From assembly GCA_964373805.1 (NCBI GenBank), contig CAYJWF010000004.1, positions 1,891-65,890 of the forward strand: DNA of 64,000 bases, in the 5' to 3' direction. Source of the stretch: an uncultured Planctomycetia bacterium (GTDB taxonomy: Bacteria > Omnitrophota > Gorgyraeia > 1-14-0-20-64-10). The notes beneath the pieces were generated by a model, which worked only from the letters and a program-made list of their open reading frames with translations, did not search any database and was not told where the DNA came from. Positions 3,158-50,029 of this stretch are shown piece by piece. The translations under genes were made by a program, and so were the position numbers. Every line of letters starts with the position of its first letter. The stretch's first letter is position 1.

Positions 3158-4329
3158 CCTTGAAGCAGGACGACCGCGTAGGCGGCCATCGCCTCTTTCG
3201 CACCAATGGGACCTAAACCTTCCATCGTCCGGACCTTCACGTTCACTTGGGATTCCTTAACCTTAAGAAGCCTCGCCACGGAGCTGCGAATCGCCTCTCG
3301 ATGGGGACCTAACCGTGGCTCCTCGGTGATGACCATGAGATCGGCGTTGGAAATTTCAAGTTTCCTGGCTCGAATCAGCCGAAGCGCCTTGGCGATGAAT
3401 CGCTGGCTCGGGGCCCCTTTCCATTTGGAATCGGTATCGGGAAAGTGGCTCCCTAAGTCCCCGGCCCCTGCCGCCCCCAGCATCGCGTCGCAGAGGGCGT
3501 GGAGGAGCACGTCCGCATCGGAGTGACCCAGGAGTCCCTTCTTCGCTGGAATCTTCCTTCCCCCTAAGACGAGCGGCCGGCCCGCGATCAACCGATGAAT
3601 ATCAAACCCAATGCCTACTCGCATATCAAAAGGGGTCTGACCCCTTTTGCCTTTCATCAAGGTTTCCGCCATCAAGAGATCATCCTGAGTGGTCACCTTC
3701 AAATTCCGGGGAGAACCTTCCACGATCCGTACCTTGACCCCCATCGCCTCCACCAAGGCTGCGTCATCCGTTGCGGTAACCCGCCTGATTCTTGCCCGAT
3801 GGTGAGCCGATTCCAACAGATCCCGACGAAACACTTGAGGGGTCTGGATCGCCCAGAGGTGGTTTCGATCCAAGGTTTTGGCCACCCATCCGGCCCTGAC
3901 CTGCTTGATCGTCGGAACCACTGGGATAGCCGCCACGGCCGCTTGCGTCCGTTGGGCGGTCCGGATCGTCTCCATAAGGAGCTCCGATGGGACGAGGGGA
4001 CGAGCCCCATCGTGAACCACCACCCACTCTGCCGATGGAGGAAGCGCCTGCAATCCTCGGAAGACTGAGGCGGTCCGAGAAGCGCCTCCCGGGATGATCT
4101 GAATCACCTTCCGATAGCGGTACTTCTGGACCATCCGTTGGACCGCCGCGACATCGTCCCGATGACTGACCACAACCATCCCATCGATCGGACGAGCCTG
4201 CTCCAAGGCGCTTAAGGTCCAAGACAGCATCGGCCGTCCAGCCAACCGGACGAACGGCTTTCGGACCTTCTTCTTAAAACGTCTGCCCTCTCCAGCAGCT
4301 GGGACAATAGCGACAACCCTAGGTGCCAG
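3145..4329 (-). CDS. ispDF: bifunctional 2-C-methyl-D-erythritol 4-phosphate cytidylyltransferase / 2-C-methyl-D-erythritol 2,4-cyclodiphosphate synthase (IspDF)
   Basis: Tracked ORF starts at a TTG (4245). The same frame upstream encodes the conserved IspD N-terminus VVAIVPAAGEGRRF, right up to an in-frame TAG at 4351-4353. The C-terminal half is IspF (GHSDADVLLHAL...). No ATG/GTG/TTG lies between the TAG and the motif; the start is placed at CTG 4327-4329 by inference. Confidence 0.8.
   Translation of the reverse strand: MAPRVVAIVPAAGEGRRFKKKVRKPFVRLAGRPMLSWTLSALEQARPIDGMVVVSHRDDVAAVQRMVQKYRYRKVIQIIPGGASRTASVFRGLQALPPSAEWVVVHDGARPLVPSELLMETIRTAQRTQAAVAAIPVVPTIKQVRAGWVAKTLDRNHLWAIQTPQVFRRDLLESAHHRARIRRVTATDDAALVEAMGVKVRIVEGSPRNLKVTTQDDLLMAETLMKGKRGQTPFDMRVGIGFDIHRLIAGRPLVLGGRKIPAKKGLLGHSDADVLLHALCDAMLGAAGAGDLGSHFPDTDSKWKGAPSQRFIAKALRLIRARKLEISNADLMVITEEPRLGPHREAIRSSVARLLKVKESQVNVKVRTMEGLGPIGAKEAMAAYAVVLLQGCRS
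3628..3650. repeat. P1 palindrome inside ispDF (IspD-IspF linker)
   Basis: AAAAGGGGTCTGACCCCTTTTGCC; encodes GKRGQTPF. Confidence 0.85.
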
Positions 4330-4350: not shown

Positions 4351-5379
4351 CTATCTCGCCGCCTTCCAGGCCGCTCGAGAGTTCTCCACCTCCGGCTTGG
4401 CAAAGATCATCCGCCCCGCAGCGGTCTGAAGGACGCTCGTCACCAACACCCGAACCGTCTGCCCGATCAAGGAACGACCCTGTTCGACCACCACCATGGT
4501 CCCGTCATCGAGGTAGGCCACCCCCTGATTGTACTCCTTGCCCTCTTTGATCACCCGGGCCTCCAACAGCTCCCCGGGCAACACCACCGGCTTTAAGGCG
4601 TTGGACAACTCGTTGATGTTAAGCACCGGGACCCCTTGCAGCTCGGACACCTTGTTCAAATTAAAATCGTTGGTCAAGATCTTGGCCCCCATCAGCTTCG
4701 CCAATCGGACGAGCTTCGCGTCCACCTCTTTGGTGTCCGGGAATTCCTCCTCGTGGATCTTCACCTCCACGGAAGGAATCTTCTGCATCCGGGCCAAGAC
4801 GTCCAACCCCCGACGACCTCGGTTGCGCTTGATGGGGTCTTGGCTGTCGGCGATCTGCTGGAGCTCCTTCAAGACAAAACGGGGGATCACCAACCGGCCC
4901 TCGATGAACTGGGTATCACAGATGTCCGCGATCCGCCCATCGATGATGACGCTCGTGTCAAGGATGACGACCTCTTCCCGTTGATCCTGGCGGGTAAACT
5001 TCACATAGGGGATGATGACGTTGAACTCATCCCGACCCCGAACGGCGATGGCCATCCCAAAGTAACAGAAGATCACGACGATCGCCGCCCGAACGGGATT
5101 GCCCAACTCCGGCCCGGTGGGAACCATATCCAAGGTCGTGATGATGAGCCTCGCCATCAACAGCCCAAAGGCCAGCCCAAAGGCGGCGGCCGAGAGGCCG
5201 CGGCTCGAAACCTTCTTCAAGGCCAATTCCAAACCGATCAAGATCAAAGCCACACCGGCTCCCCCCAGGGCTCCGGTCAAGCCCGCCTCGGATCCCCCCA
5301 AGCCCATCAAGGGTCCGATCTGATAACCGACCATGGCCCCTAGGGCCACAAAGAAGAATCGAATGAACCACAGCGTCAT
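4351..5379 (-). CDS. PIN/TRAM domain membrane protein (YacL-like)
   Basis: N-terminal TM helices, PIN domain ([12 protein letters not shown]), C-terminal TRAM-like domain; yacL is the usual neighbour of ispDF. Confidence 0.75.
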
Positions 5380-7812: not shown

Positions 7813-9295
7813 ACTCCTCGTCCCGATCCAACCGAACCTGGACCCTTTGCCCGGAAGAAGACAACGGATACGTCAGCTCCAGCTCCTCGCGCGTCACCGA
7901 TTCCGGTTGAACTTCACGATCCACCTCATAAGCGAGGCCCACCGCCATTCGGTCTTCCGCCGTGGAACGGCGCACGCTCAGGCCCGAAACCGAAGGTCTC
8001 TCGCCCGGCACCTCTACAGGCCGCGCGGGAGACTCCACCCCCAGGGGTCCCACGCGCCAGCCTCCCCCAACCCCTAAACTTCTTTCGGTCGAGGAAAGCC
8101 GCACGTTGGAAAGGAAGTCGCTGCGGCCCAACCGTCGAAGATCGACGGTCCCCTCGATGAGCAGCACGCCGCTTGGCTTGGTGATTTGAGAGTTCTGGAT
8201 CTTTAAGATCGGCCCTTCGCCTCTAAAACGCAGCGTCGCCAGGCGGAATCTCTCCCATCCCAAGGACCCTCCTTCGCTGGAAATCTGGCCTTGGCTTTCC
8301 AGTTGACTTAAGGGGCCGGTCAAGGTGACTCGACCATGAATCGGACCGGAAAGGGTCCATCGCTGAGGTCCAGCAAACCAACGGATCCATCTGTCTAAAT
8401 CGGCCCTTTTAAGCTCCAAGTTCAAGTCCACCGGATAGGGTGGCTTTAAACGAATCCGACCATTCAAAGAGGCCTCTTGCCCCAAAAGCTCCGCCTGCAG
8501 GTGAAGATCGGAACGCTCCACCACCCACCGGACCGTCAGCTGTTCAGGAATTTCTTCCTCCTGGCGCGCCCAGATGGTGATCCTTCCCCCGACCCCATGA
8601 GAAGAAACCTCTTTCTTAAGAACCCCTTCTACCCGCCAGGCTCCTTGGAGTTCGGCCTGTTTCAAGCGGATCGCCTCCCGCGAAAGGGACCATTGGCTGA
8701 CGAAATGACTCCTGGGAAAGTGAGCTCCTTCTTCTACGTTTCTGGCTGCGCCAGCGGCCAGTCTAGGAAAGTCCCGCGCCTCAGCGAGGGGCTCCATCCA
8801 TCCTAAAAGGATCGGCTCCTTAACCGTGCCGCTCAACTCCACCATTCCTTTAAAGAACGGATGCTCCAGGGTGAGCCAACCGTCCCACCCGAGCTGCGAT
8901 GAGTTTTCCTTGGCGTCCTGAGCGGTAAGATGCAAGCGGCCCTGCGCTTCAAGAGGGAGGCCGCCCACCGACAGGGATACCCGAGTCACCGTGATAGAGG
9001 TCACGATACCGTCGCGAAAGAACATCTGTGGATTCTCGAAAGCGCTTCGACTGAAGAGTCGCCAAAGCGATCCTTCCATCTGAAGACGTTCAATCGCCAA
9101 AAAGGAGGGTTTTACGGAAACTCCATAAAGGATCAGTTTCTTGGGAGAAAAGGCCAATCGCTGAATGGATACCGGCGCCTTGAAAAGTTGACTTAAACCT
9201 TGGCTCAACCGAACGCGCCCAACCTGAAGGGCCCAGAAGAATCCTCCAGCGCTCACAAGACTCACGCAGAGAAACGCCCCAAAAAACCGTCTCAA
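7781..9295 (-). CDS. membrane-anchored periplasmic protein, possibly AsmA-like; carries an in-frame repeat element
   Basis: N-terminal TM helix then a 480-aa soluble region; no firm family match; contains repeat R1 encoding [12 protein letters not shown]. Confidence 0.4.
   Translation of the reverse strand: MRRFFGAFLCVSLVSAGGFFWALQVGRVRLSQGLSQLFKAPVSIQRLAFSPKKLILYGVSVKPSFLAIERLQMEGSLWRLFSRSAFENPQMFFRDGIVTSITVTRVSLSVGGLPLEAQGRLHLTAQDAKENSSQLGWDGWLTLEHPFFKGMVELSGTVKEPILLGWMEPLAEARDFPRLAAGAARNVEEGAHFPRSHFVSQWSLSREAIRLKQAELQGAWRVEGVLKKEVSSHGVGGRITIWARQEEEIPEQLTVRWVVERSDLHLQAELLGQEASLNGRIRLKPPYPVDLNLELKRADLDRWIRWFAGPQRWTLSGPIHGRVTLTGPLSQLESQGQISSEGGSLGWERFRLATLRFRGEGPILKIQNSQITKPSGVLLIEGTVDLRRLGRSDFLSNVRLSSTERSLGVGGGWRVGPLGVESPARPVEVPGERPSVSGLSVRRSTAEDRMAVGLAYEVDREVQPESVTREELELTYPLSSSGQRVQVRLDRDEEFVGVEHRKKF
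8733..8800. repeat. R1 repeat element, copy in AsmA-like gene
   Basis: TCTACGTTTCTGGCTGCGCCAGCGGCCAGTCTAGGAAAGTCCCGCGCCTCAGCGAGGGG. Confidence 0.8.
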
Positions 9296-11769
9296 ATGTG
9301 ACGTTCCGCAGGAGTAGGCGCCGGATGGAAGACCAGTCGATCGTTCTCCACCTCGATCAAGAGCGCTGCCCCCTCCTTGTAGTGTCCCGCGATGATCTCT
9401 TGCGCTAGGGGATCCTCCAAGTGCCGGGCAATGGTCCGTTTCAAAGGTCGGGCCCCATAGATCGGATCAAATCCCTTATCGATCAAGAACTCTTTGGCCG
9501 CGGGCGACAACTCGATGGCGATGCCCTGTTCCCGAACCCGGGCCATGACCTCGGCCATCTCGATCTCTACAATCCGATGGAGATCCTGCCGGGTCAAGGA
9601 TCTAAAAACAATGGTCTCATCCACTCGGTTCAAGAACTCCGGCTTAAAGGTTTTCTTCATCTCCTCCAAGAGCTGACCCTTCATGTCTTGATACGTCACC
9701 TCCTCCTTGGGGGTCTTAAATCCCAAGGAGCCCTGCTTACGCAGCAGCTCCGCCCCCAGGTTGGAGGTCATGATCAAGACCGTGTTCTTGAAATCGACCT
9801 TCCGGCCAAAGCTGTCGGTGAGCCTGCCCTCCTCCAAGACCTGCAGGAGAAGATTGAAGACGTCCGGATGGGCCTTCTCCAATTCGTCCAGGAGGACCAC
9901 GGAGTAAGGGCGCCGACGGACCTTCTCGGTCAACTGCCCGCCCTCTTCGTATCCCACGTAGCCGGGTGGGGCTCCCACCAGTCTTGAGACGTTGAACTTC
10001 TCCATGTACTCCGACATGTCGACCTGGATCATCGCCTCCTCATTCCCAAAGAGAAACTCGGCCAGCGCCCGGGCCAACAAGGTTTTCCCCACGCCGGTGG
10101 GCCCTAAGAAGATGAAAGAGCCGATCGGCCGTCGAGGGTCTTTGAGGCCTGCGCGGGAACGGCGAATGGCGTTGGCGATCGCCTCGATCCCCTCCTGCTG
10201 GCCGACCACCCGCTTATGGATCTCCTCCTCCATCCGCAGGAGTTTCTGCGTTTCCTTCTCCTCCAAACGGGAGACGGGGATGCCGGTCCATTTGGAGACG
10301 ATCTGGGCGATGTCCTCCTCGGTGATCACCGGCTGCGCCTCGGCCTTGGAACGGGACCATTCCCGCTTCGCCCGCTCCATCTCGGCCCTGGCCTCCCGCT
10401 CCTGATCCCGCAGCGACGCCGCCTTCTCGAAGTCCTGTCCCTTGACCGATGCCTCCTTTTCCTTGCGCAAGGTTTCGATCCGTTCCTCAACCTCCTTCAA
10501 GTTGGGAGGGGCGGTCAACACCATCAGCCTCGCCCGGGATCCGGACTCGTCCATGAGATCAACCGCCTTATCGGGCAGGTACCGCCCCGAGATGTAGCGG
10601 TCGGACAGCTTGGCCGCCGCCTCGAGCGCGGCGTCCGAGTACTTCACCTTGTGGTGGGCCTCGTACTTGTCCCTTAACCCCTTCAAGATGGCGATCGTCT
10701 CCTCGACCGTTGGGGGATCCACCACGATCGTCTGGAATCTTCGTTCCAGGGCTGCGTCCTTCTCGATGTACTTGCGGTACTCATCCAACGTGGTCGCCCC
10801 GATGCATTGGATCTCCCCACGGGACAAGGCCGGCTTCAAGATGTTGGAGGCGTCGATCGCCCCTTCCGCCCCACCGGCCCCCACCAAGGTATGCAGCTCA
10901 TCGATGAAGATGATCACATTCTCCGAGCGCCGGATCTCATCCATCACCGCCTTGATCCGCTCCTCGAACTGCCCTCGGTACTTGGTACCGGCCACCATCA
11001 AGGCCAGGTCCAGGATGACCACCCTTTTATCCTTCAAGATCTCCGGAACATCGCTCCGAATGACCTTTTGGGCCAAGCCCTCCACAATGGCGGTCTTTCC
11101 CACGCCGGCCTCCCCCAACAGAACCGGGTTGTTCTTGGTTCGACGGGAGAGAATCTGGATCACCCGTTCGATCTCGTTCTTGCGGCCGATCACCGGATCC
11201 AGTTTGTTTTCTCGGGCCAACTGGGTAAGATCCCGGCCAAAGGCGTCCAGGGCTGGCGTCTTGGTCTTGGCCGGAGCCGGCCCCATCGCGCTGTAGCCGG
11301 GAGCGGTCGATCCCAACAGCTCCATGACCTCCTGCCGGACCTTCCCGAGATCGAGCCCTAAGTTCACCAATACCTGGGCGGCGATTCCCTCCCCTTCCCG
11401 GATGAGGCCCAAAAGGAGGTGTTCGGTTCCGATGTAGTTGTGCCCTAAGTTCCGGGCCTCGTCCATCGCCAGCTCAATCACCTTCTTCGCCTTCGGGGTG
11501 AAGGGAATGTCGCCGGAGACAATGGTGGAAGGCCCCAGCTGCACCAGCTTCTCCACCTCCAATCGGATCTGGTCGGAGCTTAACCCTAAATTTTGCAGGA
11601 CCGCAGCCGCGACCCCTTCCCCCTCTCGGATGAGGCCCAGCAGGATATGCTCCGTCCCAATGTAATCATGATTAAACCGTTTGGCCTCTTCCTTGGCCAA
11701 AAGGATCACCTTCCGCGCCCGCTCGGTAAACCGATTAAACATATTCATCCCGTTACACCTCCTTTCCAC
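9292..11769 (-). CDS. clpC: ATP-dependent Clp protease ATP-binding subunit ClpC
   Basis: Two N-terminal Clp repeats, two AAA+ modules ([16 protein letters not shown]), UVR-like linker; 825 aa. Confidence 0.9.
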
Positions 11770-11893
11770 CCATTTCTAAGAGCTCGATTCCTTCCTTAAT
11801 CGTCAGGACAGCAACCCCATTACTCCAACGTGTCATTCCACCTATAAGGATATCATACCAGAAAAATTGGTTTTAGGGATCGTGGGATGAGGC

Positions 11894-13057
11894 TTAGAGC
11901 GGCTTCGCCAAAGACTTCCAGCTCAGGACGCGGACGAACCCCCTTGTCTGCTCTTCATCTCCTGCGTGAATCAGGAAAGCCGATCTTGTTGTCCGTTTCG
12001 TGAGCCTCCCCCAATAGAAGAGATTCTTCAGAGAGTCAGGGGTGACGGTTTTCCCCGATTGGATCTCCACGGGGATCTCTCTGGATCCTTCTTGAAGGAT
12101 CAGGTCAACCTCATGGCCAGCCTTGTCTCTCCAGAAATACAGGTGAGGGGTTCGCCCTTGGTGCAGCCGGTGTTTGAGTATCTCGCAGACGACGAAGGTT
12201 TCAAAAAGGGCGCCGCGGAGCGGATGGCTTTTCAGGTGAGAAAGATTTTCAATGCCCAATAGGGAGCACGCCAGGCCGGTATCGGTCAGATACAGCTTTG
12301 GGCTCTTGACGATCTGCTTCTTGAAGTTTTGATGGAAGGGAGGAAGCAGGTAAGCCAGAAAGCTGGCCTCCAGGACGCCCAGCCACGCCCTGGCCGTGTT
12401 GTGCGTGATGCCACAGTCGTTGGCCAGATTGCTCAGGTTGAGGATACACCCCGTTCGGCCGGCGCAGAGCTGGAGGAACCGGTGAAAACTGGGGAGGTCG
12501 TGGACGTTCTTGATCTGCCGGACATCCCGCTCCAGATAGGTGCGGATGTAATCCGGGTACCAGTCGGCAGGCCGCAGCCGCTTGTCGTAGATTCTGGGAT
12601 ACAACCCCTGCAACAGGAGTTCTTCCGCAGAGGGCAGTCTCTTTAAAGTGGGAAGGAGCTCTGAGAGTGAGAATGGCATCAACGTCAGGATCCGCACGCG
12701 CCCGGCAAGGGTCTGAGACAGCTTCTCTAGAAGAAGGAAGTTTTGAGAGCCGGTCAGGATAAATAAGCCTTCCCCCTTATGCGTGTCCACGTGGGTCTGA
12801 AGATAAGAAAACAGCTCCGGGGCCCGCTGCGCCTCATCGAGGATGGCGCCTCCCCCGTATTCCTTGAGGAATCCGCGGGGATCCTGGGTAGCGTACGCCA
12901 ACGTATCCCGGTTTTCCAGAGAGACGTAGGCCTTTTGGGGGAACAGGTTTCGGGCCAGTGTGGTTTTCCCGGATTGCCTCGGTCCCAGGATGGCCACCAC
13001 CGGAAACTTTCTGGCCATCTCCACAATCTTCTTCTGCAAGGTCCTGACGACCATCAC
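11894..13057 (-). CDS. AAA+ ATPase of the COG1373/DUF4143 family
   Basis: Walker A GPRQSGKTTL, Walker B ILDEAQ, C-terminal DUF4143-like region. Confidence 0.7.
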   Translation of the reverse strand: MMVVRTLQKKIVEMARKFPVVAILGPRQSGKTTLARNLFPQKAYVSLENRDTLAYATQDPRGFLKEYGGGAILDEAQRAPELFSYLQTHVDTHKGEGLFILTGSQNFLLLEKLSQTLAGRVRILTLMPFSLSELLPTLKRLPSAEELLLQGLYPRIYDKRLRPADWYPDYIRTYLERDVRQIKNVHDLPSFHRFLQLCAGRTGCILNLSNLANDCGITHNTARAWLGVLEASFLAYLLPPFHQNFKKQIVKSPKLYLTDTGLACSLLGIENLSHLKSHPLRGALFETFVVCEILKHRLHQGRTPHLYFWRDKAGHEVDLILQEGSREIPVEIQSGKTVTPDSLKNLFYWGRLTKRTTRSAFLIHAGDEEQTRGFVRVLSWKSLAKPL

Positions 13058-13165
13058 AGGGCCAGGCTACCAGGATATGGATAAATTGTCAATACGATTT
13101 ACAATATATCCATTTTTGTCCGGCGCACCCGTCTCCAGACTTACGCCTGGGACCCTAGACCTTTG

Positions 13166-13216
13166 CGACCCCCCCCCTGATTCGTTTTGCTTCGCAAACC
13201 GAATCAAAACGGTGGG
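13166..13216. repeat. R2 hairpin repeat copy A (C-run / G-run clamped)
   Basis: CCCCCCCCCTGATTCGTTTTGCTTCGCAAACCGAATCAAAACGGTGGGGG; 41-nt core identical to copy B. Confidence 0.8.
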
Positions 13217-13271
13217 GGTGTGCCTTTTCGGGAAGGGTTACAGTCTTAAGTTTACCTGAGGGGCATGCGAG

Positions 13272-13320
13272 AAATGGCGAAAATCTTTTGGCTAACTGTT
13301 CATCACGCCCTAACCGAGGC
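13272..13320. repeat. direct repeat X1 (pairs with X2 at 13972-14020)
   Basis: AAAATCTTTTGGCTAACTGTTCATCACGCCCTAACCGAGG versus AAAATCCATGGCTAACTCTTCATTACGCCCTAACCGAAAAGG. Confidence 0.6.
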
Positions 13321-13384
13321 GGGGCGTTACCAGGGTTGGATAACTCCTGGAGTAGCCAGGAAGTTGGTTAGCCGGATAGTTTCG

Positions 13385-13621
13385 CTAGGCAAGAGCAACT
13401 TCGAGGGGTCTGCGCTTGAGGGCGCTGACCCGGAGGATGGAGAATCCGAGAATGTTGCCTTTCTTATCCACTTTCTCCATCACCTGGTCACTGGCTGTCT
13501 CTCGGAAGTACCCCTTTCGTCTTTCAAAGATGACTTCCAGGTAATCCCCCTCTGGATCGTACCAAAGCTTCACAATCTTGCGTGCCATATCACGGTCCCT
13601 CTTCGAACCTTGTCGGTCCAA
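13385..13621 (-). CDS. DUF2283-family small protein (putative antitoxin)
   Basis: KLWYDPEGDYLEVIF... pattern typical of DUF2283; pairs with the adjacent DUF4258-like gene; true start probably at the internal Met (~13588). Confidence 0.5.
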   Translation of the reverse strand: MDRQGSKRDRDMARKIVKLWYDPEGDYLEVIFERRKGYFRETASDQVMEKVDKKGNILGFSILRVSALKRRPLEVALA

Positions 13622-13884
13622 TAGGCGGTCAATACAAAGGCATCGTCACCTTGAACCTTGACCACCACGCACAGAAACTTGTCCCCTACTTGGGTCCCCA
13701 TGTAGAAACGGTGGTACAACCGCGCGCCGGGATCAGCCAAGGAACGGATGACAATCTGAGGAGCTGCCAATGTCTCGGCGATGGCATCTTCCATTCCCAC
13801 CATTTCTGGGTGTTCTCGTATATGTGCCCACCGTTCCTCCGTAAGACGGATGAGCCGGCCTTCAAAGTCACGCAGGCGCTTCAT
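13570..13884 (-). CDS. DUF4258-like protein (putative toxin of a DUF4258/DUF2283 pair)
   Basis: 104 aa; ...FLCVVVKVQGDDAFVLTAYWTDK... RelE-fold-like pattern; overlaps the partner gene. Confidence 0.45.
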   Translation of the reverse strand: MKRLRDFEGRLIRLTEERWAHIREHPEMVGMEDAIAETLAAPQIVIRSLADPGARLYHRFYMGTQVGDKFLCVVVKVQGDDAFVLTAYWTDKVRRGTVIWHARL

Positions 13885-13971
13885 TGCCTCGGGATGCCGA
13901 CGTTCGGTAAAAGAACCTCCAAGTCATCCATGGCCATGATACCTCTAAGTATAGCCGATGGACACCAGAGA

Positions 13972-14020
13972 GATGCCAAAAATCCATGGCTAACTCTTCA
14001 TTACGCCCTAACCGAAAAGG
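13972..14020. repeat. direct repeat X2
   Basis: See X1; the pair brackets the DUF2283/DUF4258 module just inside R2 copies A and B. Confidence 0.6.
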
Positions 14021-14137
14021 AGGGAATTCGAATCTGTTTAGCTCTTTGCGACAGCGACGAGCGCGCCCGACGGCAATCCATCCGTCATTTCGACGACCGG
14101 AGGGAGGAGAAATCCCGCTTTTGAGATTTCTCGTCGT

Positions 14138-14188
14138 CCCCACTGATTCGTTTTGCTTCGCAAACCGAATCAAAACGGTGGGGACTCC
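14138..14188. repeat. R2 hairpin repeat copy B (direct repeat of A)
   Basis: CCCCACTGATTCGTTTTGCTTCGCAAACCGAATCAAAACGGTGGGGAC. Confidence 0.8.
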
Positions 14189-14264
14189 TCGAAATGACAA
14201 TTTTCTCTCAAACCGCTAAACATCTATTCATCTATTTAGAGGGTATCCCCGGGCCCCTGCGGAC

Positions 14265-15257
14265 TTACGCCTGGGACCCTATGCCGAGGGACTGCTCCAA
14301 GCCTGCCGCAAGGATCGAGACCAAGTCCGGCGAAACTCCGAAACCCTTCAAGATCGCATCCATCGAGAACAGCTCCTGCGCGAAGTAAAGACGTAGAACA
14401 TCCGCCGCGACCCGAACCGGATAAACATGTTCCAGCGGACCCAAATAAGTAACTCGGGAAAGACCATGGATTTTCTGGAAGGCGGTTGTTACCGCATCCG
14501 GGGATCGCTCCGGAACGTAATGAATCCGCCGATTCTCACCGACAAGTCCTTCGGCCAACTCCGATTCCCCCAGCAGAACCAGCCGCCCGGCAAACCGATC
14601 CAGCCTCCGGAGAACCTGGACCAAATCAGCATCTAACGTAGCGGCATCCAGAACAACCGCCTGAATCCCCTCGACGCTTGCCTCCGCCATCGCAACCGCC
14701 ATCGCAATCCCCCGATCCCCTTCCTCTACGTTTCTGGCTGCGTTAGCGGCCAGTCCAGGAAAGTGCCGCGCATCAGCGCGGCCTTCCTCCAGCCCAGAGG
14801 GATTACTTTCTCCCGTGGTACCTGGTTTCGCCTCCCGCTCTGACCCTGAGAAATTTCTTAACAATCGAGGAAGGAATCCCATCACCTTACCAGGAATAGC
14901 CCCCTCCCCACCCCGCCAGCGGGAGATCGTCTCCCGACTCACCGGCTTCCCGCCGTTGTACCCTGCACCTGCCAGCGCCTGAGCCATCCCTTCCTGCGTC
15001 AACCCCAGCCAATCCATCACCTGGCCAAACTCTGTATCACCAGCGACTTCCGAATCCGCTGCATCCTCCTCCAGCCCGGCGAAGGCAGCGGAGGAGCCTC
15101 TGGACCCCCCTGGAAAAGCCGCCTCCAGCTCAGAGCTGGCGGCACTTTCCAGGCCAGCCTGGGCACGCAGCGCAAGGGCAACGGAAGGCCGAACAAGCGT
15201 TAGAGCCAAGAAAAGCCCCAACGAGCTTCGCCAACGGTCCATTCGTTCTCTTCTCAT
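14265..15257 (-). CDS. secreted hypothetical protein of the GLEE-motif family, with embedded repeat and an HTH-like segment
   Basis: Signal-peptide-like N-terminus; several (A/S)GLE(E/Q) motifs; C-terminal ...ILAAGLEQSLGIGSQA; segment GLTQEGMAQALAGAGYNGGKPVSRETISRW resembles an HTH; carries repeat R1. Confidence 0.45.
   Translation of the reverse strand: MRRERMDRWRSSLGLFLALTLVRPSVALALRAQAGLESAASSELEAAFPGGSRGSSAAFAGLEEDAADSEVAGDTEFGQVMDWLGLTQEGMAQALAGAGYNGGKPVSRETISRWRGGEGAIPGKVMGFLPRLLRNFSGSEREAKPGTTGESNPSGLEEGRADARHFPGLAANAARNVEEGDRGIAMAVAMAEASVEGIQAVVLDAATLDADLVQVLRRLDRFAGRLVLLGESELAEGLVGENRRIHYVPERSPDAVTTAFQKIHGLSRVTYLGPLEHVYPVRVAADVLRLYFAQELFSMDAILKGFGVSPDLVSILAAGLEQSLGIGSQA
14712..14800. 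repeat. R1 repeat element, longest copy, in GLEE-family gene
   Basis: CTCTACGTTTCTGGCTGCGTTAGCGGCCAGTCCAGGAAAGTGCCGCGCATCAGCGCGGCCTTCCTCCAG; includes hairpin CCGCGC-ATCA-GCGCGG. Confidence 0.8.
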
Positions 15258-15409
15258 AGGCAGACCATCGAATACGTTTGAGTTTACCTGAAGAATTGGG
15301 AAAGCGCAAGATTCCTGACTGTCTATCGTTACGACTTACTCCTGGTGGGCTTGGCGCTGCGAAAGCTGTTGACACCCATTTCGTCACTTAGGACAATAAA
15401 TGACGACAC

Positions 15410-16117
15410 ATGCCTTTCATCTTGTTGGTCATTTTTGGTCTGGCCGGTTGCGCCACAAAGGCTGGTCCAGCCCCCACTGCGGGATTCGTGGCGGCGGCTC
15501 GGCTTACCCAACCGACGGGCCTTCCCTTTCACAAGGCCTGGCAGAAACCGGAATTCGACTGGGGTCAGTACGGAACCATTTCGGTCAGCCCCGTCAACAT
15601 CGATTACCTTCCCCAGATGGACTGGTGGAAAAAGTTGGAACGGGGTCAAGGCTTTCAAGCCGATGCCAAGAAGCTGGCCGAATACACGCGTCAGACCTTT
15701 GAAGAGGCGTTCCGCGAAGATCCGAACCAACGCTTTCAGGTAGTCGATGCGCCTCAAACCGATACCCTGATTCTGGAGATCGCCCTGGTGGAGATCGTCC
15801 CCAGCAAGATCATGTTAAACACCTTAGGCTACGCCCCCTTTGTCGGCAGCGCCTTTAAGCTGATCCGAAACACCAAGTCCAAAAGCTCCGTGGCCTTCGA
15901 GGCCCGGTTCCGAGACGCCCAAACCGGCGAGGTCGTGGCCCAATTCGCCGACCGGGAGTTCGAGAAGATGTCGCCGGTGAATGTCAAGGATGTCACCTGG
16001 TACGGCCATGCCGAGAGCATCCTCTGCGAATGGGCCGACCAGTTCGTCCGGATGGTGAACCGAAAAGAAGGGGAACAGATCCCCGACTCCAAACCGTTCC
16101 ACCTGAAGCCCTGGTAA
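15410..16117 (+). CDS. lipoprotein, DUF3313-like
   Basis: Lipobox LAGCAT after a short signal peptide; 235 aa; one of very few plus-strand genes in the first 35 kb. Confidence 0.5.
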   Translation: MPFILLVIFGLAGCATKAGPAPTAGFVAAARLTQPTGLPFHKAWQKPEFDWGQYGTISVSPVNIDYLPQMDWWKKLERGQGFQADAKKLAEYTRQTFEEAFREDPNQRFQVVDAPQTDTLILEIALVEIVPSKIMLNTLGYAPFVGSAFKLIRNTKSKSSVAFEARFRDAQTGEVVAQFADREFEKMSPVNVKDVTWYGHAESILCEWADQFVRMVNRKEGEQIPDSKPFHLKPW

Positions 16118-16132
16118 GCAGGTTGTTTGCCC

Positions 16133-16185
16133 AGCCCCCCCCCCCCAAGCTTCGCTTTGCGAAGCAAAACGCGGGGGGCCAGCCG
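16133..16185. repeat. R2 hairpin repeat copy C, between convergent genes (possible bidirectional terminator)
   Basis: CCCCCCCCCCCCCAAGCTTCGCTTTGCGAAGCAAAACGCGGGGGG between the lipoprotein gene (+) and mcsB (-). Confidence 0.6.
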
Positions 16186-16186
16186 A

Positions 16187-17230
16187 TTAGAGGGTTTCTC
16201 GCAGGAGTTTGGCGCGGCGGGCGTCCCGTTCGGAAGGGTTTAAGCCGCGGCCCTCCAGCTTCTGAAGATGGGCCGGCTGGGTCTGGATGAAGAGGCGGTT
16301 CACCAGTCCCCGCTCGAGATTGTTCATTAAACCCAGATCGATACCGAGACGCACCAAAGACAAAAGCTCGACCGTCTCGTTGGAGGTGATAAGGTGGGCG
16401 GATTTCAGCGTCCCCAACGCCCGCCAGATCCGATCCTCGAGAGCCTGACGGCTTTGGGTCAGGAGCGCCCGACGGGCCGCCTCCTCCTGCTCGATCACCT
16501 GTTTGATCAACCTTCCCAAGTTGTCCAGGATCTCCTCCTCGGAGACGCCGAGGCTCACCTGGTTGGACAACTGGAAGAGGTTGCCGGAGGCCTCGGTCCC
16601 TTCCCCGTAAAGGCCGCGCGCCGTCAATCCCAATTTGGAAATCGCATGGAGAACCCGGTTGATCTGCTTGGTCATCACGAGACAGGGTATGTGCAGCATA
16701 CAGGAAGCTCGCATCCCGGTTCCTACGTTGGTGGGGCAGGCCGTCAGATACCCCCACTGGGGAGAAAAGGCGTAGGCGAGATGCCCCTCCAACTGGGCAT
16801 CGATCTGACTCAACACCACCCAGGCCTCGGGGAGATTGAACCCCGACTGCAACACTTGAAGCCGCAGGTGATCCTCTTCATTGATCATGAGGGCCAAGAT
16901 CTCCCGGTCGCTCACCACGACCGCCTTTTCTCCGGAGGGGGACGCATGCTCGGGACTGATCAGGTGCCGCTCCGTGAGGAAGAGACGGTCCAGCTCCGTC
17001 AGTTCCGATAGGGCCAAGAGGAGCGACCCTTTCAAGTAGGCGCAAGTTCCCACCGCCTCCTCGATCCGGGCCAAGATTTCGACCCGCCGTTTCTTGCCGG
17101 CCCAGTGAGGAAATGGGGTGTCGCTCAAATTCCTCGCCAGCCGGATCCGGGAGGACATCACGATCTCTCCCTTGGGGCCGGTTCCCCGGAGCCATTCCCC
17201 GGTTTGGTGGACCAGATCGTCAAGGGTCAT
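16187..17230 (-). CDS. mcsB: protein arginine kinase McsB
   Basis: ATP:guanido phosphotransferase catalytic-domain signature (CPTNVGTGMRAS), 347 aa. Confidence 0.85.
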   Translation of the reverse strand: MTLDDLVHQTGEWLRGTGPKGEIVMSSRIRLARNLSDTPFPHWAGKKRRVEILARIEEAVGTCAYLKGSLLLALSELTELDRLFLTERHLISPEHASPSGEKAVVVSDREILALMINEEDHLRLQVLQSGFNLPEAWVVLSQIDAQLEGHLAYAFSPQWGYLTACPTNVGTGMRASCMLHIPCLVMTKQINRVLHAISKLGLTARGLYGEGTEASGNLFQLSNQVSLGVSEEEILDNLGRLIKQVIEQEEAARRALLTQSRQALEDRIWRALGTLKSAHLITSNETVELLSLVRLGIDLGLMNNLERGLVNRLFIQTQPAHLQKLEGRGLNPSERDARRAKLLRETL

Positions 17231-17261
17231 GGAATTACTGCAAACGTATTTAATCGAGAGA

Positions 17262-17345
17262 CGTATCCGCTCGCCCTGAGCCTGTCGAAGGGCGAACCTG
17301 TCTTCGTGCTTCGACTCTGCTCAGCACGAACGGTTGTCACGGCGA
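17262..17345. repeat. R3 nested-hairpin repeat (conserved loop TGAGCCTGTCGAA / TTCGACWNNGCTCA), mcsA-mcsB intercistronic copy
   Basis: TCGCCC-TGAGCCTGTCGAA-GGGCGA followed by TTCGTGC-TTCGACTCTGCTCA-GCACGAA. Confidence 0.7.
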
Positions 17346-17359
17346 ATCTCCAAATCGCC

Positions 17360-17974
17360 TCATCTTTTAGGTCCCTTGCCTTTCACCCTAGATTCTTCAC
17401 CCTTCACTGCCTTTGCCTTTTCCTCCACGGCTCGAACCCGATCCCGAAGACGGGCCGCCTCCTCAAAGGCCTCCGCGGCGACCGCCTTCTTGAGGTTCTC
17501 CTTAAGCCGCGCCAGATCTGTCTCTTCCCCTATGCTTTTAGCGGCATCAGCAGCCCGTCCAGAAAAGTGCCGCGCATCAGCGCGGCCTTCACTTTTCTTG
17601 GCCGCCTTCGGCTGCGAAACGGAAGGACCCTTTCCCACATGTTGGGTGGAACCGTGGATCCGCTTTAACAGGGGAACCAGGTACGGCTCAAACGTCTCGT
17701 AACAGTTCCCGCAGCCAAGCCGACCAACCTTGCGAAACCCTTCGTAAGTCATTCCACACCTGGGGCAGGAAAGCTTGGTTCGCTCGGTCGACTCTCCTTT
17801 AAGCCCGAAGTCGGCGAGGCCGGCCAAAAGGCCTGCTAACCCGAACTCCTGCCCTGCCGCAGTTCCTTTCTCGTGCGCGCAGCTCTCGCAGAGATGGAGC
17901 TCGCGGGTCTGGTCGTCAATGATCTCGGTCAGATGAACCGTCGCCTCGTTTTGTCCACACAGGTCACAGGTCAC
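17360..17974 (-). CDS. mcsA: McsA, activator of protein arginine kinase (zinc-finger / UVR domain)
   Basis: CxxC pairs (CDLCG...CESC; CPRCG...CGNC) and a C-terminal UVR motif (AVAAEAFEEAARLRDRV); carries a partial R1 repeat. Confidence 0.75.
   Translation of the reverse strand: MTCDLCGQNEATVHLTEIIDDQTRELHLCESCAHEKGTAAGQEFGLAGLLAGLADFGLKGESTERTKLSCPRCGMTYEGFRKVGRLGCGNCYETFEPYLVPLLKRIHGSTQHVGKGPSVSQPKAAKKSEGRADARHFSGRAADAAKSIGEETDLARLKENLKKAVAAEAFEEAARLRDRVRAVEEKAKAVKGEESRVKGKGPKR
17533..17600. repeat. R1 repeat element, partial copy (3' half), in mcsA
   Basis: ...CCAGAAAAGTGCCGCGCATCAGCGCGGCCTTCAC; the 33-nt core is identical to the 14712 copy. Confidence 0.75.
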
Positions 17975-17984
17975 AAGCTTTCCT

Positions 17985-18012
17985 CAAAAAGGTACCAGGT
18001 ACCATTTTAAAA
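17985..18012 (-). terminator. putative rho-independent terminator of ilvE (GGTAC-CTG-GTACC hairpin plus U-run)
   Basis: Minus-strand RNA reads ...AAAAUGGUACCUGGUACCUUUUUGAG directly after the ilvE stop. Confidence 0.5.
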
Positions 18013-18017
18013 CCCCA

Positions 18018-18036
18018 ACGGGGTCAGACCCCATCA
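18018..18036. repeat. P1 palindrome, intergenic (ilvE-mcsA)
   Basis: CAACGGGGTCAGACCCCATC. Confidence 0.8.
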
Positions 18037-19685: not shown

Positions 19686-20803
19686 CTAATCCCCATGGCC
19701 GCCAACCCTACGGCCAACGCGTCCCAAGGTTCCAACTTCACCGGCAGCCGATCGATGTAATAGATCTCCGGTGGCAGCTGAATGAACTGGTACTTCGCCA
19801 AGAGGGTGCACAAACCGAGCCCCAGCCCGCCCCCTAAGAAGGTGCCGAGACAACCAATGAGTAGACCGGCCCAGGTAAAGATCCGACGGATGGAGGCGTT
19901 GGTCGCTCCTAAGGCCTTCAAGATCCCAATCTCCTTCGTCTTCTGAACCACCACGATGAGAAGGGTCGCCACGATGTTAAAGCAGGCCACCAACACGATG
20001 AGGGCCAAGATGACGAACATGGTCACCTTCTCCAATTTGAGGGCCGCAAAGAGATTTCGGTTTAAGTCCATCCAGGTCACCACCCAGTACGGAAACCCAA
20101 GCTTCCGCCGAAGGAGATCCCGAACCGAAGGGGCCTCCAGCGCCGCTTTAAGCCGCACCCCAATTCCAGAGACCCGATCCGGAGTGCCGGCGACTCCCTT
20201 CACCGTCTCGATGGAGGCGAGGGCCAGATTGAGATCGTAGTCGTACATCCCGGTCGCAAACGTGCCCTTGACCTTCATGGGGAACTTGGTGGCCTTCTCT
20301 CCGCCGATCACCGTGATGGAATCCCCGGGTCGAACCCCCCAGCGCCGAGCCAGTTCCGACCCCAGGATTAACTCTCCCGATTGCGGCGGCCAGTACCCTT
20401 CTCTTCGAGAAAGGCGGCTCGCCAACTCCGTCACGGAAGGTTCCCTGGCTGGGTCGATCCCTCTGAGGATGACACCGGTCGCCTCCTTCCCCCGTTGAAG
20501 CAGCACTTGGATTTGGAGGAAAGGGGCCGCCGCCTCCACCTGAGGAATTTCGGTGAGCGTGTTTAAAATGGAATCGACCTCAACGACCCCTCCCTCGGCT
20601 TCAACGATGAGATGTGGATTCGCCCCGACGATCTTCGACTGCAAGTCGGCATCGAACCCGCTCATCACCCCTAACACCACGAGAAGCGCCGCCACCCCCA
20701 AGGCCACCCCCCCCACCGAGATCACCGCGATCACCGAGACAAACGGCTGCGATCGCTTCAACCCCTTCAAATACCTCATCGCCAAAAACAGTTCGTACCT
20801 CAT
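19613..20803 (-). CDS. lolC: lipoprotein-releasing system permease LolC/LolE (FtsX-like)
   Basis: MacB/FtsX-type 4-TM permease with a large periplasmic loop; 396 aa. Confidence 0.75.
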   Translation of the reverse strand: MRYELFLAMRYLKGLKRSQPFVSVIAVISVGGVALGVAALLVVLGVMSGFDADLQSKIVGANPHLIVEAEGGVVEVDSILNTLTEIPQVEAAAPFLQIQVLLQRGKEATGVILRGIDPAREPSVTELASRLSRREGYWPPQSGELILGSELARRWGVRPGDSITVIGGEKATKFPMKVKGTFATGMYDYDLNLALASIETVKGVAGTPDRVSGIGVRLKAALEAPSVRDLLRRKLGFPYWVVTWMDLNRNLFAALKLEKVTMFVILALIVLVACFNIVATLLIVVVQKTKEIGILKALGATNASIRRIFTWAGLLIGCLGTFLGGGLGLGLCTLLAKYQFIQLPPEIYYIDRLPVKLEPWDALAVGLAAMGISWASCLYPAWVAARKQPAEAIRYE

Positions 20804-21288
20804 CCGTGAATTTTACTCTCGATCCAATCCAAGGTATTCCGGAGAAGGGCCGCTACGTCTTCAGCATCTTGGCGAGTGGGTAACCCCTCCGGTCCAATCC
20901 CCGGCAACGCATCTGGATAGCGGGTAGGAATGTAATACTGATCAAGCTTCAGACAGGTCTCTTGAAGCTTTGAAAAGCTGGCATCGAGATCTTGACAAAT
21001 AGCCAATAGCTCACCCAGGGCATGCGATCGAGGAACGGATCGCTGGCGGCTCCGCAAGAAACCCTTTAATGCCTTCTCCACACCTTGTTGAGCATGGAAA
21101 CAAGTCTGATTGTAGATCCCTTTCTCTAGGGCTGCTTCCGCCAACACAAAATCCTCGCGTGCAAACTCCATCCACCTATGCGGCTCGGTCATAGAGGACC
21201 TTCCCTTTATGGGCGATCTCGTCCACCCAAAAGCAATGGTCACTTTTCTCCATCTGAGCCACCTCTTGGGGAGTATAGACGACCACAT
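20800..21288 (-). CDS. HEPN domain protein (toxin component of a HEPN/MNT pair)
   Basis: Rx4-6H-like region and YYIPTRYPD motif; start is probably the internal Met near 21192. Confidence 0.7.
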   Translation of the reverse strand: MWSSILPKRWLRWRKVTIAFGWTRSPIKGRSSMTEPHRWMEFAREDFVLAEAALEKGIYNQTCFHAQQGVEKALKGFLRSRQRSVPRSHALGELLAICQDLDASFSKLQETCLKLDQYYIPTRYPDALPGIGPEGLPTRQDAEDVAALLRNTLDWIESKIHG

Positions 21289-23679: not shown

Positions 23680-23687
23680 ACCCTTTA

Positions 23688-23730
23688 GATGGTACCAGGT
23701 ACCTTTCTAAAATGGTACCTGATACCATTT
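23688..23730. repeat. P2 twin hairpins GGTACCAGGTACC + GGTACCTGATACC (lnt 3' end / lysS upstream)
   Basis: GATGGTACCAGGTACCTTTCTAAAATGGTACCTGATACCATTTTA. Confidence 0.8.
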
Positions 23731-23732
23731 TA
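23706..23732 (-). terminator. putative rho-independent terminator of lnt
   Basis: Minus-strand RNA ...AAAAUGGUAUCAGGUACCAUUUUAGAAAGG just after the lnt stop. Confidence 0.45.
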
Positions 23733-25178
23733 CGGCCTTCCTCGATGCAAAGATAGGGAATCCACCCCGGATTCAAAGCGAGGAACTGAGGAGATCCGCC
23801 GCCCGGCCGGATCGATGAAGCCGGACCACCCGGTGTTGGCGGCGCGAACCACCCAAACCCGGTTTTCAATCGCACGGAACACGCAGGCCTGCAGATGCTG
23901 AAGCGAGGCAGCCGACCGATGAAACCAGGCGTCGTTGGTGATGACCAGGAGCCACCGGGCCCCTTCCCGAACAAAACGTCGAGACAAATCTGGAAAGAGA
24001 TCCTCGAAGCAGATGAGCACACTGAAGGGAAGGACGTCGTGGGTCTTGAGTCTTGAGTCTTCAGTAAAAGGCTGCCGAAAAGTAGCCGGTTGGAAAACGG
24101 TGAATCGACTTCCGGGGGAGAAATTCCCCATTAAAACGAACCGGCGTAGCCATCCAAAAAAGAACTCGAGGGGGAGGTATTCCCCGAAAGGGACCAGATG
24201 AACCTTGTCGTAACGTTCCACGAGATTCCCTTGGGGGTTTAAAAGGCAAGCGCTGTTAAACATCCTTTCGGTACCTGATACCGTTTCAGTAACCGGTGCC
24301 CCCACCAGTAAAGGAGTGTCCGTGGCTTGCGCCAATTTCTGGAGCCGTTCGAAGATCTCGGGGTCCTCCAAGTATCCAGGTACCGCCGTCTCCGGCCAGA
24401 CGATGAGGTCCGGACGGGATTGAGCGGCTTGACCCGTTAACGTTTCGTAGCGATGCCAGATCTCCTCTTGGAAAACCTCATCCCACTTCTCGGTCTGCGG
24501 GATGTTGCCCTGCACCACCGCAACCCTGAAAGACAGTCGTGGGTCGTGGGTCGTGGGTCGCGAGTAAACCTCAAGCTGGTGAATGCGAAAGGAGCCGTAG
24601 GCCAGCGCAGCAAGCAAACAGGCGCCTGCCAACGCTATAGCGGATAGTCCTTTCCTATACGCTGTACGCTGGACGCTATACGCTAACCAAAGGGCCACGT
24701 TGACCAGAACCACGAGAAAAGAGACCCCGTAGACACCGGTCAAATCGGCGATCTGAATGACCGGAATCCAATTCCACTGGGTGTGAGCGATCAGGTTCCA
24801 TCCGAAGCCGGTCAACCAGGTGTTGCGAAGATACTCCAGAAGAACCCACGCCGCCGGCAAAGTGAGAAGGGGTGTACGGTGTACGGTGTGCGGCGTACGG
24901 CGAAGACCACTCACCATTCTCTGGGCGAGCCAGCCCCAGATCCCAAAATACAGAGCCAGGTATCCGATCAGTAAAACCGTCCCGGGAATCGTCACGTATC
25001 CCACCCACCAGATCGTCCCAGCAAAGAAGAGGATCCCGATAAGATAGCTTTGTAGGAAGGCCTTTCTTGGGGAACTTTTCTCCAGCGCAAGCAGCCAAGG
25101 CAGATAGGCCACCCACGCTAGCCACCCCAAATCAAAAGGCGGGAAACTTAAGACGAAAAGAAGGGCAGAGACAGCCAA
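23730..25178 (-). CDS. lnt: apolipoprotein N-acyltransferase
   Basis: N-terminal multi-TM region plus C-terminal CN-hydrolase domain (CFEDLFP); carries three in-frame heptamer tandem arrays and one GGTACCTGATACC palindrome. Confidence 0.85.
   Translation of the reverse strand: MAVSALLFVLSFPPFDLGWLAWVAYLPWLLALEKSSPRKAFLQSYLIGILFFAGTIWWVGYVTIPGTVLLIGYLALYFGIWGWLAQRMVSGLRRTPHTVHRTPLLTLPAAWVLLEYLRNTWLTGFGWNLIAHTQWNWIPVIQIADLTGVYGVSFLVVLVNVALWLAYSVQRTAYRKGLSAIALAGACLLAALAYGSFRIHQLEVYSRPTTHDPRLSFRVAVVQGNIPQTEKWDEVFQEEIWHRYETLTGQAAQSRPDLIVWPETAVPGYLEDPEIFERLQKLAQATDTPLLVGAPVTETVSGTERMFNSACLLNPQGNLVERYDKVHLVPFGEYLPLEFFFGWLRRFVLMGNFSPGSRFTVFQPATFRQPFTEDSRLKTHDVLPFSVLICFEDLFPDLSRRFVREGARWLLVITNDAWFHRSAASLQHLQACVFRAIENRVWVVRAANTGWSGFIDPAGRRISSVPRFESGVDSLSLHRGRP
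24036..24900. repeat. four separate heptamer tandem arrays inside lnt
   Basis: (GTCTTGA)x2.4 near 24044; (GTCGTGG)x3.4 near 24529; (AGCGTMY)x4 near 24640-24690; (GTGTACG)x4 near 24866. All are kept in frame (encode SRLKT, PTTHDPR, AYSVQRTAYRK, RTPHTVHRTP). Confidence 0.7.
24268..24284. repeat. P2 single hairpin GGTACCTGATACC inside lnt
   Basis: In frame; encodes ...ETVSGTER... Confidence 0.7.
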
Positions 25179-50008: not shown

Positions 50009-50029
50009 AACAATTTCCATTCAAATACT

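Follow-up and report, generated by a model that had tools for sequence, protein, structure and literature searches.

The 64,000-nt stretch of contig CAYJWF010000004.1 analyzed here, referred to as the window, contains at 13385-13884 two small overlapping genes of the toxin-antitoxin (TA) type that are bracketed by two pairs of direct repeats, R2 and X. Are these repeats the ends of a mobile element? A previous reading of the same DNA (the original prediction) had proposed a cassette of about 1 kb with long terminal direct repeats. The answer that we consider probable on balance is different: the locus would be an ordinary accessory TA insertion of about 1.1 kb lying among hairpins that resemble repetitive extragenic palindromic (REP) elements, and neither R2 nor X would define a cassette.

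The R2 repeats belong to a dispersed hairpin family

13172-13217, plus strand: R2a, hairpin-family copy (fold; covariance-model match at 13161-13229, 73.4 bits).
14138-14183, plus strand: R2b, hairpin-family copy (covariance-model match at 14127-14195, 78.1 bits).
16131-16189, plus strand: third, diverged hairpin copy in the same orientation as R2a and R2b (covariance model, 38.8 bits, E=1e-8).
14084-14198, no strand assigned: composite three-way structure around R2b (fold of -54.6 kcal/mol, z=-5.9; other strand, z=-5.5).

The exact 41-mer CTGATTCGTTTTGCTTCGCAAACCGAATCAAAACGGTGGGG occurs twice in the window, at 13177-13217 and 14143-14183, as originally reported except for coordinates that were off by 2-3 nt. 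No third match was found in the window at ≤3 mismatches, and none in 100 shuffles. Together with the preceding C-run, the repeat extends over 46 nt, 45 of which are identical (13172-13217 versus 14138-14183). Folding of both copies yielded a hairpin clamped by the C-run and a G-run, in agreement with the clamps previously described.

A search pattern derived from the window copies (TTCGTTTTGNTTCGC N8-9 CAAAACG N1-2 GGGG) matched four sites in the window and 19 stretches of Joint Genome Institute (JGI) metagenome contigs. The aligned copies gave the consensus CCCCCRCTGnTTCGTTTTGCTTCGCAAAnCGAAnCAAAACGRYGGGGG, a core of about 48 nt comprising a 7-bp CCCCCRC/GYGGGGG clamp, an asymmetric internal loop (TG versus CAAAACG), and an 11-bp stem with a UUC loop. 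In the consensus structure 92.6% of the cells were paired, versus 44-61% with slid partners. The helices of an alternative register were set by the search pattern itself, so that their pairing is uninformative. Pairs 16-53 and 20-44 covaried, with three pair types each (GC10/AU7/CG2 and UA12/AU5/CG5, respectively), and the observed covariation score was not reached by any of 500 shuffles. A covariance model detected five copies in the window, three on the plus strand (13161-13229, 14127-14195, and 16131-16189) and two on the minus strand (40612-40679 and 60097-60165). The three diverged copies had escaped the original prediction, as had two further local repeats described below, D3 and D16.

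The metagenome copies occupy short spacers between housekeeping genes, for example S10-L3 and mreC-mreD, or closely follow uppS and lptB; both orientations relative to transcription occur, and some copies are located 10-40 nt before a ribosome-binding site. The host contigs have GC contents of 38-59% and the mean core identity of the family is 87%. One host contig belongs to Candidatus Omnitrophota, and at least three copies are present on a single metagenome contig of 54.7 kb. Named loci of Omnitrophota, Planctomycetota, and Verrucomicrobiota, 1.2 Mb in total, yielded no match to the covariance model. No Rfam family matched at its gathering score; at E≤1, only frameshift-element and miRNA hairpin models were retrieved, far below threshold. 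The hairpin sequence string had no match in the searchable literature, and neither the R2 core nor the family pattern had any in IMG/VR.

The identity of R2a to the copies in L101 and L107, two unrelated contigs with a GC content of about 40%, is 95.8%, versus 93.8% to R2b. Since R2a matches copies from foreign contigs as well as it matches R2b, the near-identity of R2a and R2b is no evidence of a local duplication. R2 is thus a member of a dispersed intergenic hairpin family and not a terminal repeat specific to a cassette. The family is REP-like and is found all over the window genome as well as in further uncultured bacteria, including at least one member of the Omnitrophota. Its members may act as structural elements at the RNA or DNA level, for example as hairpins that end or stabilize transcripts, or as protein-binding sites. 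We also considered whether the hairpin inserts with duplication of its target, which, followed by a crossover between R2 copies, would explain both X and D3. This was rejected as a property of the family: for 24 copies, flanking direct repeats were not above shuffled controls.

This family, a by-product of the analysis, is in our view more interesting than the TA insertion itself. It lies outside Rfam, displays compensatory changes, and is unusually conserved across uncultured genomes of very different GC content. It could provide a handle on transcript processing or genome plasticity in the Omnitrophota, a phylum without genetics.

The composite structure at R2b comprises an outer stem (GTCATTTCGA/TCGAAATGAC) and a second hairpin at 14104-14135, and takes in most of an 85-nt stretch (14053-14137) located between R2b and the right copy of D16. 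No second instance of this three-way structure was present in the window or in any of the fetched loci.

Several additional observations were made on the family. Many copies (L096, L103, L104, L105, L106, L101, L107, and L108) have a further AT-rich stem outside the G/C clamp, with conserved flanks (TAAnTTCG ... CTCAnTTA), and the asymmetric core is found in both orientations relative to these outer flanks. At several loci, the CTCATT flank is directly followed by a ribosome-binding site and a start codon. L101 contains a c-di-GMP-I riboswitch at 245-335 (68 bits, above the gathering score) and, about 90 nt later, a hairpin copy at 425-493 ahead of the downstream open reading frame (ORF). In the window, the hairpin at 40612-40679 lies between comEA and comEC and falls in the initial 25 codons of the longest ComEC ORF (39098-40693); the true comEC start may be downstream of the hairpin. 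The copy at 60097-60165 is located in a 1.1-kb region (59277-60407) downstream of a TPS-domain gene. This region contains no Pfam-supported gene, its longest ORF (59665-60375) has no Pfam match, and it holds two other C/G-clamped hairpins (59826-59855 and 60170-60205).

The gene pair is a widespread module devoid of R2 and X

13570-13884, minus strand: predicted toxin-like gene, 104 amino acids (aa), PBECR2/DUF4258-like (BECR-fold nuclease class); ORF with sub-threshold Pfam matches.
13385-13588, minus strand: DUF2283 partner gene, 67 aa, presumed antitoxin or regulator; Pfam DUF2283; ORF extendable to a TTG codon at 13621.

Both overlapping ORFs of the original prediction, 13570-13884 and 13385-13621 on the minus strand, were recovered. 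Gene callers place the start of the DUF2283 gene at 13588 within the longer open frame, resulting in a 19-nt overlap with the toxin gene. The proposed domain assignments held for one partner of the pair. The DUF2283 profile (PF10049) was reached with 30.2 bits for a cut-off of 23 (E=5e-7) over the full profile (1-49). The toxin fell short of the gathering cut-off of DUF4258 (PF14076), with 15.5 bits versus 25 (E=0.022), and scored 16.7 bits against PBECR2 (PF18810), for which the cut-off is 27.1 (E=0.0086). Among 32 aligned toxin homologs, PBECR2 was matched at E≤0.01 by 27 (best E=1.6e-6) and DUF4258 by nine.

An AlphaFold model of the toxin obtained from the homolog alignment had a predicted local distance difference test score (pLDDT) of 93. 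Comparison of this model with the Protein Data Bank returned nothing at E≤1e-3, with weak similarity to HigB1 and to a contact-dependent inhibition (CDI) toxin. The model superposed on the C-terminal domains of phage MuF, 'minor capsid', and polyvalent proteins, with template-modeling (TM) scores of 0.67-0.71 and E values of 3e-5 to 2e-4. PBECR domains occur in the C-terminal domains of phage MuF and polyvalent proteins. DUF4258 is listed among the BECR-fold toxins of the RelE/ParE superfamily, its activity not being known (PMC11980606), and for DUF2283 proteins a role as transcriptional regulators has been proposed (PMC4755241). By these resemblances, the product of 13570-13884 is a putative toxin, which the DUF2283 protein presumably neutralizes, unless its role is to regulate the operon.

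More than 300 toxin homologs, 60-82% identical, were found across phyla, their sources including metagenome-assembled genomes (MAGs) labeled Nitrospiraceae, Betaproteobacteria, and Terriglobia. No homolog of the TA pair was found in IMG/VR. In the five loci examined (the window and four contigs), the toxin gene always precedes an equivalent 67-aa DUF2283 gene, which it overlaps by the same 19 nt. In the four other contigs the module sits among menaquinone and haem biosynthesis genes, nucleotide homology to the window (about 75%) is limited to 13385-13888, and the flanks contain neither X nor R2. TA genes deprived of flanking repeats are in substance the observation that the original prediction had named as contrary to it. 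A TATAAT box is present just before the start codon in the homologous modules and absent from the window copy. Flanking repeats as a general property of such modules were rejected, as no direct repeats surround L089-L091 and only a weak 19-nt inverted pair was seen in L091. Since the same pair is widespread and its homologs share the coding region only, X and R2 are not parts of the module. Sequence comparison thus shows the gene pair to be a common module of the TA type, spread horizontally.

A 4.4-kb accessory zone separates mcsB from clpC

11770-16186, no strand assigned: lineage-specific accessory zone of 4.4 kb splitting the mcsB-clpC junction, delimited by comparison with the mcsB-clpC gaps of relatives.
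11894-13057, minus strand: AAA_14 + DUF4143 ATPase (COG1373 type; Pfam), the neighbor downstream of the TA segment.
14265-15257, minus strand: upstream gene 'geneA', an orphan ORF with no Pfam family, carrying an in-frame 68-nt repeat.

The nearest relatives of the window McsB, according to a genome scan, are found in Omnitrophota MAGs (about 60% identity). Both mcsB and clpC were present in 46 of 80 fetched relative loci. The gap between them was -16 to 178 nt in 42 of the 46, and 385, 399, 1734, and 2162 nt in the other four. In the window, this junction is occupied by the DUF3313 gene, the orphan gene, the TA pair, and the AAA_14/DUF4143 ATPase gene, and in the 80 relative loci no member of these four gene families lies at 10 kb or less from mcsB. 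The DUF3313 gene and mcsB are convergent, and the third hairpin (16131-16189) is located between their ends. The GC content is 0.50-0.55 across the TA segment versus 0.60-0.65 in clpC and mcsB.

The identification of the downstream neighbor as a COG1373 ATPase was correct. Its GC skew is opposite to that of the neighboring genes, and a paralog, 27% identical, is encoded at 45522-46826. The 'GLEE-family' neighbor of the original prediction does not correspond to a protein family, since 'GLEE' results from the 68-nt repeat inserted in the orphan gene. A homolog search of 5.8 billion proteins with the orphan product returned the query alone, and exact-protein look-ups were empty. No integrase, transposase, or REP-associated tyrosine transposase (RAYT, of the Y1 HUH type) is encoded by any ORF of at least 90 aa in the window.

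The mcsA-mcsB-clpC stress operon (9292-17974), conserved elsewhere, is thus split here by 4.4 kb of lineage-specific genes, and the locus shows how this otherwise rigid operon can be interrupted by accessory genes.

Local duplications and the proposed insertion

13133-13157, plus strand: D3, displaced duplicate of the upstream gene's 3' end, located 75 nt before the ATPase start.
14257-14281, plus strand: D3', the last four codons (G S Q A) and the stop codon of gene 14265-15257 (minus strand) and 3 nt beyond.
13247-13317, plus strand: X1, left X copy, transcriptionally downstream of the TA pair and 190 nt upstream of the ATPase start.
13946-14015, plus strand: X2, right X copy, 61 nt upstream of the toxin start codon.
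13156-13169, plus strand: D16, the 14-nt 5' flank of R2a (TAGACCTTTGCGAC), a 12/14 match to 14039-14052.
14039-14052, plus strand: D16', the matching 14-mer, 85 nt from R2b.

Once R2 is set apart, two repeats qualify as truly local duplications: X, with 77% identity over 71 nt, and D3, perfect over 20 nt. The presence of a second direct repeat inside R2 was correctly noticed before, since the positions then given for X, 13272 and 13972, fall within the 71-nt copies. The full-length copies are 77% identical with one indel and contain a 29-nt core (13289-13317 versus 13987-14015) with 27 identical positions. The conserved core and a conserved TAnACTTA end flank a diverged middle. X is present in two copies only, in the window and all fetched loci, and its core had no match in JGI metagenomes and IMG/VR. 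No sigma-70-type promoter was called on the minus strand in either copy. X may serve as an operator or as a promoter of a different type, or may be the scar of a recombination event.

D3, the outermost repeat, extends over 25 nt with 23 identities (13133-13157 versus 14257-14281) and includes a 20-nt exact core, the left copy of which is at 13138-13157; this core occurs only twice in the window at ≤3 mismatches. D3 therefore has the form of a target duplication at both ends of the segment, perfect over 20 nt, the right copy being the 3' end of a gene. D3' coincides with the stop-codon region of the upstream gene, and for this reason a recombination of about 1.1 kb into the 3' end of that gene is the most likely history; the location of D3' at a gene end, the signature expected of such an event, supports it. 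A perfect D3 next to an X that is 77% identical is most simply explained by an older composite unit that was inserted recently at D3. An alternative origin of D3, as the tail of a paralog of the upstream gene, was rejected: the 504-aa ORF of the window shares only the 68-nt insert with that gene, and D3 exists in just two copies.

The proposed history is as follows. Lineage-specific accessory genes would have accumulated as a 4.4-kb patch between mcsB and clpC in an Omnitrophota-like genome. The segment 13158-14256 (about 1.1 kb), already containing the TA pair, both X copies, and both hairpins, would have recombined into the 3' end of the orphan upstream gene. Recombination by enzymes encoded elsewhere, or by short homologies, would have generated the 20-25-nt duplication D3. 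The junction predicted at a site devoid of the segment is CCGTCTCCAGACTTACGCCTGGGACCCTATGCCGAGGGAC. The insertion of about 1.1 kb with the TA pair is plausible in view of the GC content, lower than that of core genes, the D3 duplication, and the zone splitting mcsB and clpC. The inserted character of the segment is what stands of the proposed 1-kb cassette. R2 and X as its defining ends do not, R2 being a dispersed family (five copies in the window and 19 metagenome loci) and homologous TA modules lacking both repeats.

Two further observations were made at the left border. An imperfect palindrome (GGATAAATTGTCAA...TTTACAATATATCC) is present at 13077-13113 upstream of the ATPase gene, with a plus-strand promoter-like site at 13078-13105 directed towards R2a and antisense to the TA pair. 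This region also has a 15-nt inverted match (13/15) to 14189-14203, which is probably due to chance.

Weighing the explanations

Several observations weigh against an insertion at D3 among passive hairpins. No empty site or presence/absence polymorphism was seen, the nearest genomes being about 60% identical in McsB, and the window contains no recombinase to account for the event. The 20-nt flanking duplication is too long for the typical target duplication of a transposase. The three pairs of direct repeats are nested in mirror order (D3, R2, X / TA / X, R2, D3), which rules out models of tandem or inverted duplication, since the repeats are direct, and which is not yielded by any one simple event; formally, nested single crossovers of circles could produce it. 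Three of the five window hairpins are in the 4.4-kb zone (binomial p of about 0.003), in the same orientation and at module boundaries, an arrangement not expected of a REP-like element that is purely passive. That the R2 units might after all have arisen by local duplication is hinted at by D16, which matches at 12/14 positions and lies on the same side of both hairpins; the match has an E value of 1 over the whole flanks and is suggestive solely by its position. Finally, the search pattern prescribed 25 of the 48 core positions, so that part of the apparent sequence invariance of the family comes from the pattern itself.

Some of these points would be accounted for if R2 were the site of mobility, a reading close to the original prediction. 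Exchange between R2a and R2b, acting as sites of homologous or site-specific recombination, would excise a 966-bp TA circle able to reinsert at other hairpin copies, the family providing docking sites for small cassettes throughout the genome. The single-R2 'empty' junction would read ...GACCTTTGCGACCCCCCCCCTGATTCG...AAAACGGTGGGGACTCCTCGAAATGAC... and the circle junction ...TTTCTCGTCGTCCCCACTGATTCG...AAAACGGTGGGGGTGTGCCTTTTCGGG... The two hairpins are identical over 41 nt and in direct orientation, the enrichment (3/5 in 4.4 of 64 kb) and the three same-orientation hairpins bounding two gene modules of the zone would be expected, and a formal single crossover at R2 would yield the mirror order of D3 and X. 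The read assemblies do not discriminate. The window organism was seen only in the Logan assemblies of ERR4904390-ERR4904393 and in one NCBI contig, and the Logan contigs (k=31; 927-943 nt) are 100% identical to the window and all end inside R2 copies. Breaks inside a 41-nt repeat are expected at k=31, and contigs ending in both R2 copies are equally compatible with the window arrangement or with a single-R2 site and a 966-bp circle. We nevertheless regard this explanation as unlikely: most members of the hairpin family lie between housekeeping genes and not around accessory genes, TA modules elsewhere lack hairpins, the toxin was found in one context only in the samples containing the window organism, the other family members have no flanking target duplications, no recombinase is present in the window, and the identity of the R2 copies is accounted for by family-wide conservation. 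A stronger version, in which the hairpin is the recognition or docking site of an undescribed recombination system of Omnitrophota-like bacteria that captures and shuffles small gene modules, the 966-bp R2-to-R2 unit being excisable, is quite improbable in our estimation; if true, the DUF3313 and orphan genes on the one hand and the TA pair on the other would be modules of arrays that are delimited by hairpins of one orientation and lie beside a COG1373 ATPase. The resemblance to integron cassettes without a nearby integrase (clusters of attC sites lacking integron-integrases, CALIN) extends to similar imperfect palindromes in the same orientation between small accessory modules and to TA genes, which are common integron cargo. 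The alignment reveals no RYYYAAC/GTTRRRY core sites, the hairpin (about 48 nt) is under the usual attC range, most copies are between housekeeping genes, and there is no integrase in the window, making attC sites extremely improbable.

It is also conceivable, although unlikely, that no unit was inserted at all, X and D3 being in-situ duplications or gene conversions of short functional sequences retained by selection and the genes having arrived independently. X would then be a promoter or operator, for instance one bound by the DUF2283 protein and placed ahead of both the TA pair and the ATPase gene. The pattern of X (27/29 in the core, conserved TAnACTTA end, diverged middle) is that of a site under selection, X2 and X1 lie 61 nt and 190 nt upstream of the toxin and ATPase starts, respectively, on the same strand, and the TATAAT box usual before the start codon of homologous modules is absent here. 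The lack of a minus-strand sigma-70-type promoter call in X1 or X2 argues against this role, D3 copies coding sequence and a stop codon without obvious regulatory use, and a perfect 20-nt D3 beside an X of 77% identity points to events of different ages and not to uniform selection. A mis-join of metagenome contigs at the 41-46-nt repeat, the bracketed arrangement being absent from the cell, would fit the origin of the window (one metagenome-assembled NCBI contig of 66,471 nt) and the independent k=31 assemblies, all broken inside R2. It is very improbable given that normal reads and the larger k-mers of modern assemblers exceed the 46-nt repeat in length, that four runs contain both flanking pieces at 100% identity, and that a chance mis-join would not create D3 and X nested consistently around the same unit. 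Insertion of an accessory TA segment at D3 is therefore the explanation that we retain.

Comparison with known systems

The TA locus itself is routine, being a horizontally spread pair in an accessory patch with mostly generic surrounding repeats. It resembles type II TA systems with BECR-fold (RelE/ParE-superfamily) toxins of the DUF4258 and PBECR2 types in consisting of two small overlapping co-directional genes, in the resemblance of the toxin profile and fold to BECR nuclease domains, and in its patchy distribution across phyla among housekeeping genes. It differs in gene order and partner: the toxin gene is first here and the partner is DUF2283, whereas DUF4258 modules are listed antitoxin-first with MqsA-type partners (PMC11980606). 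The putative toxin of the window is moreover below both Pfam cut-offs.

The hairpin family shares with REP elements and bacterial interspersed mosaic elements (BIMEs), such as E. coli REP, short imperfect palindromes in many dispersed copies, located in short spacers within or after operons in either orientation, the stem being maintained through compensatory changes. In contrast to REPs, which are usually species-specific, it maintains a mean core identity of about 87% among genomes whose GC content ranges from 38 to 59%. The window revealed no RAYT-type transposase, and the core occurs in both orientations relative to conserved flanks.

Elements of the CIME type (cis-mobilizable elements) are non-autonomous, att-flanked remnants of integrative elements. 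Like them, the window segment lies between direct repeats and contains no recombinase, and one of its repeats reconstitutes the 3' end of the target gene. It differs by its size (only 1.1 kb) and by a 20-nt D3 core without recognizable recombinase-binding arms. To our knowledge, no cognate integrase or related full-length element has been described for the window genome. Integron cassettes and pdif modules are likewise small and recombinase-less, often have TA genes among their cargo, and are bounded by similar short sites, but the hairpins have neither attC core sites nor dif-like XerC/XerD half-sites, and most copies are not beside cargo genes.

Other repeats and accessory genes in the window

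The window genome is rich in several families of hairpin repeats. A 68-nt dispersed repeat with internal hairpins is present at 8722-8789, 14714-14781, 17518-17585, and 26184-26251, in each case inside an ORF that it leaves unbroken. The four ORFs are unrelated and encode the 504-aa protein, the orphan gene product, McsA, and SecA. Three of them use the repeat in one reading frame (..GRADARHFPGLAANAARNVEEGD..) and SecA in another; the 68-nt insert is the only part common to the orphan gene and the 504-aa ORF. The repeat is reminiscent of the in-frame Rickettsia palindromic elements (RPE). Further families of short palindromic repeats, of the GGGGTCAGACCCC and GGTACCAGGTACC types, appear to be intergenic (2119-2152, 3618-3651, 17982-18032, 23682-23735, 33392-33437, 47786-47834, and 63801-63841).

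Two repeat pairs with an equal spacing of 1997 nt, 90% and 70% identical, were found at 30210-30351 and 32207-32348, which suggests a diverged duplication around two ORFs without a Pfam family. Small genes of the accessory or defense type are also scattered among housekeeping genes (20800-21288, 41702-41992, 45522-46826, 50029-50895, and 4351-5379); this set comprises a HEPN protein, a ParE toxin, the second AAA_14/DUF4143 ATPase, a LAGLIDADG protein, and a PIN-domain protein.

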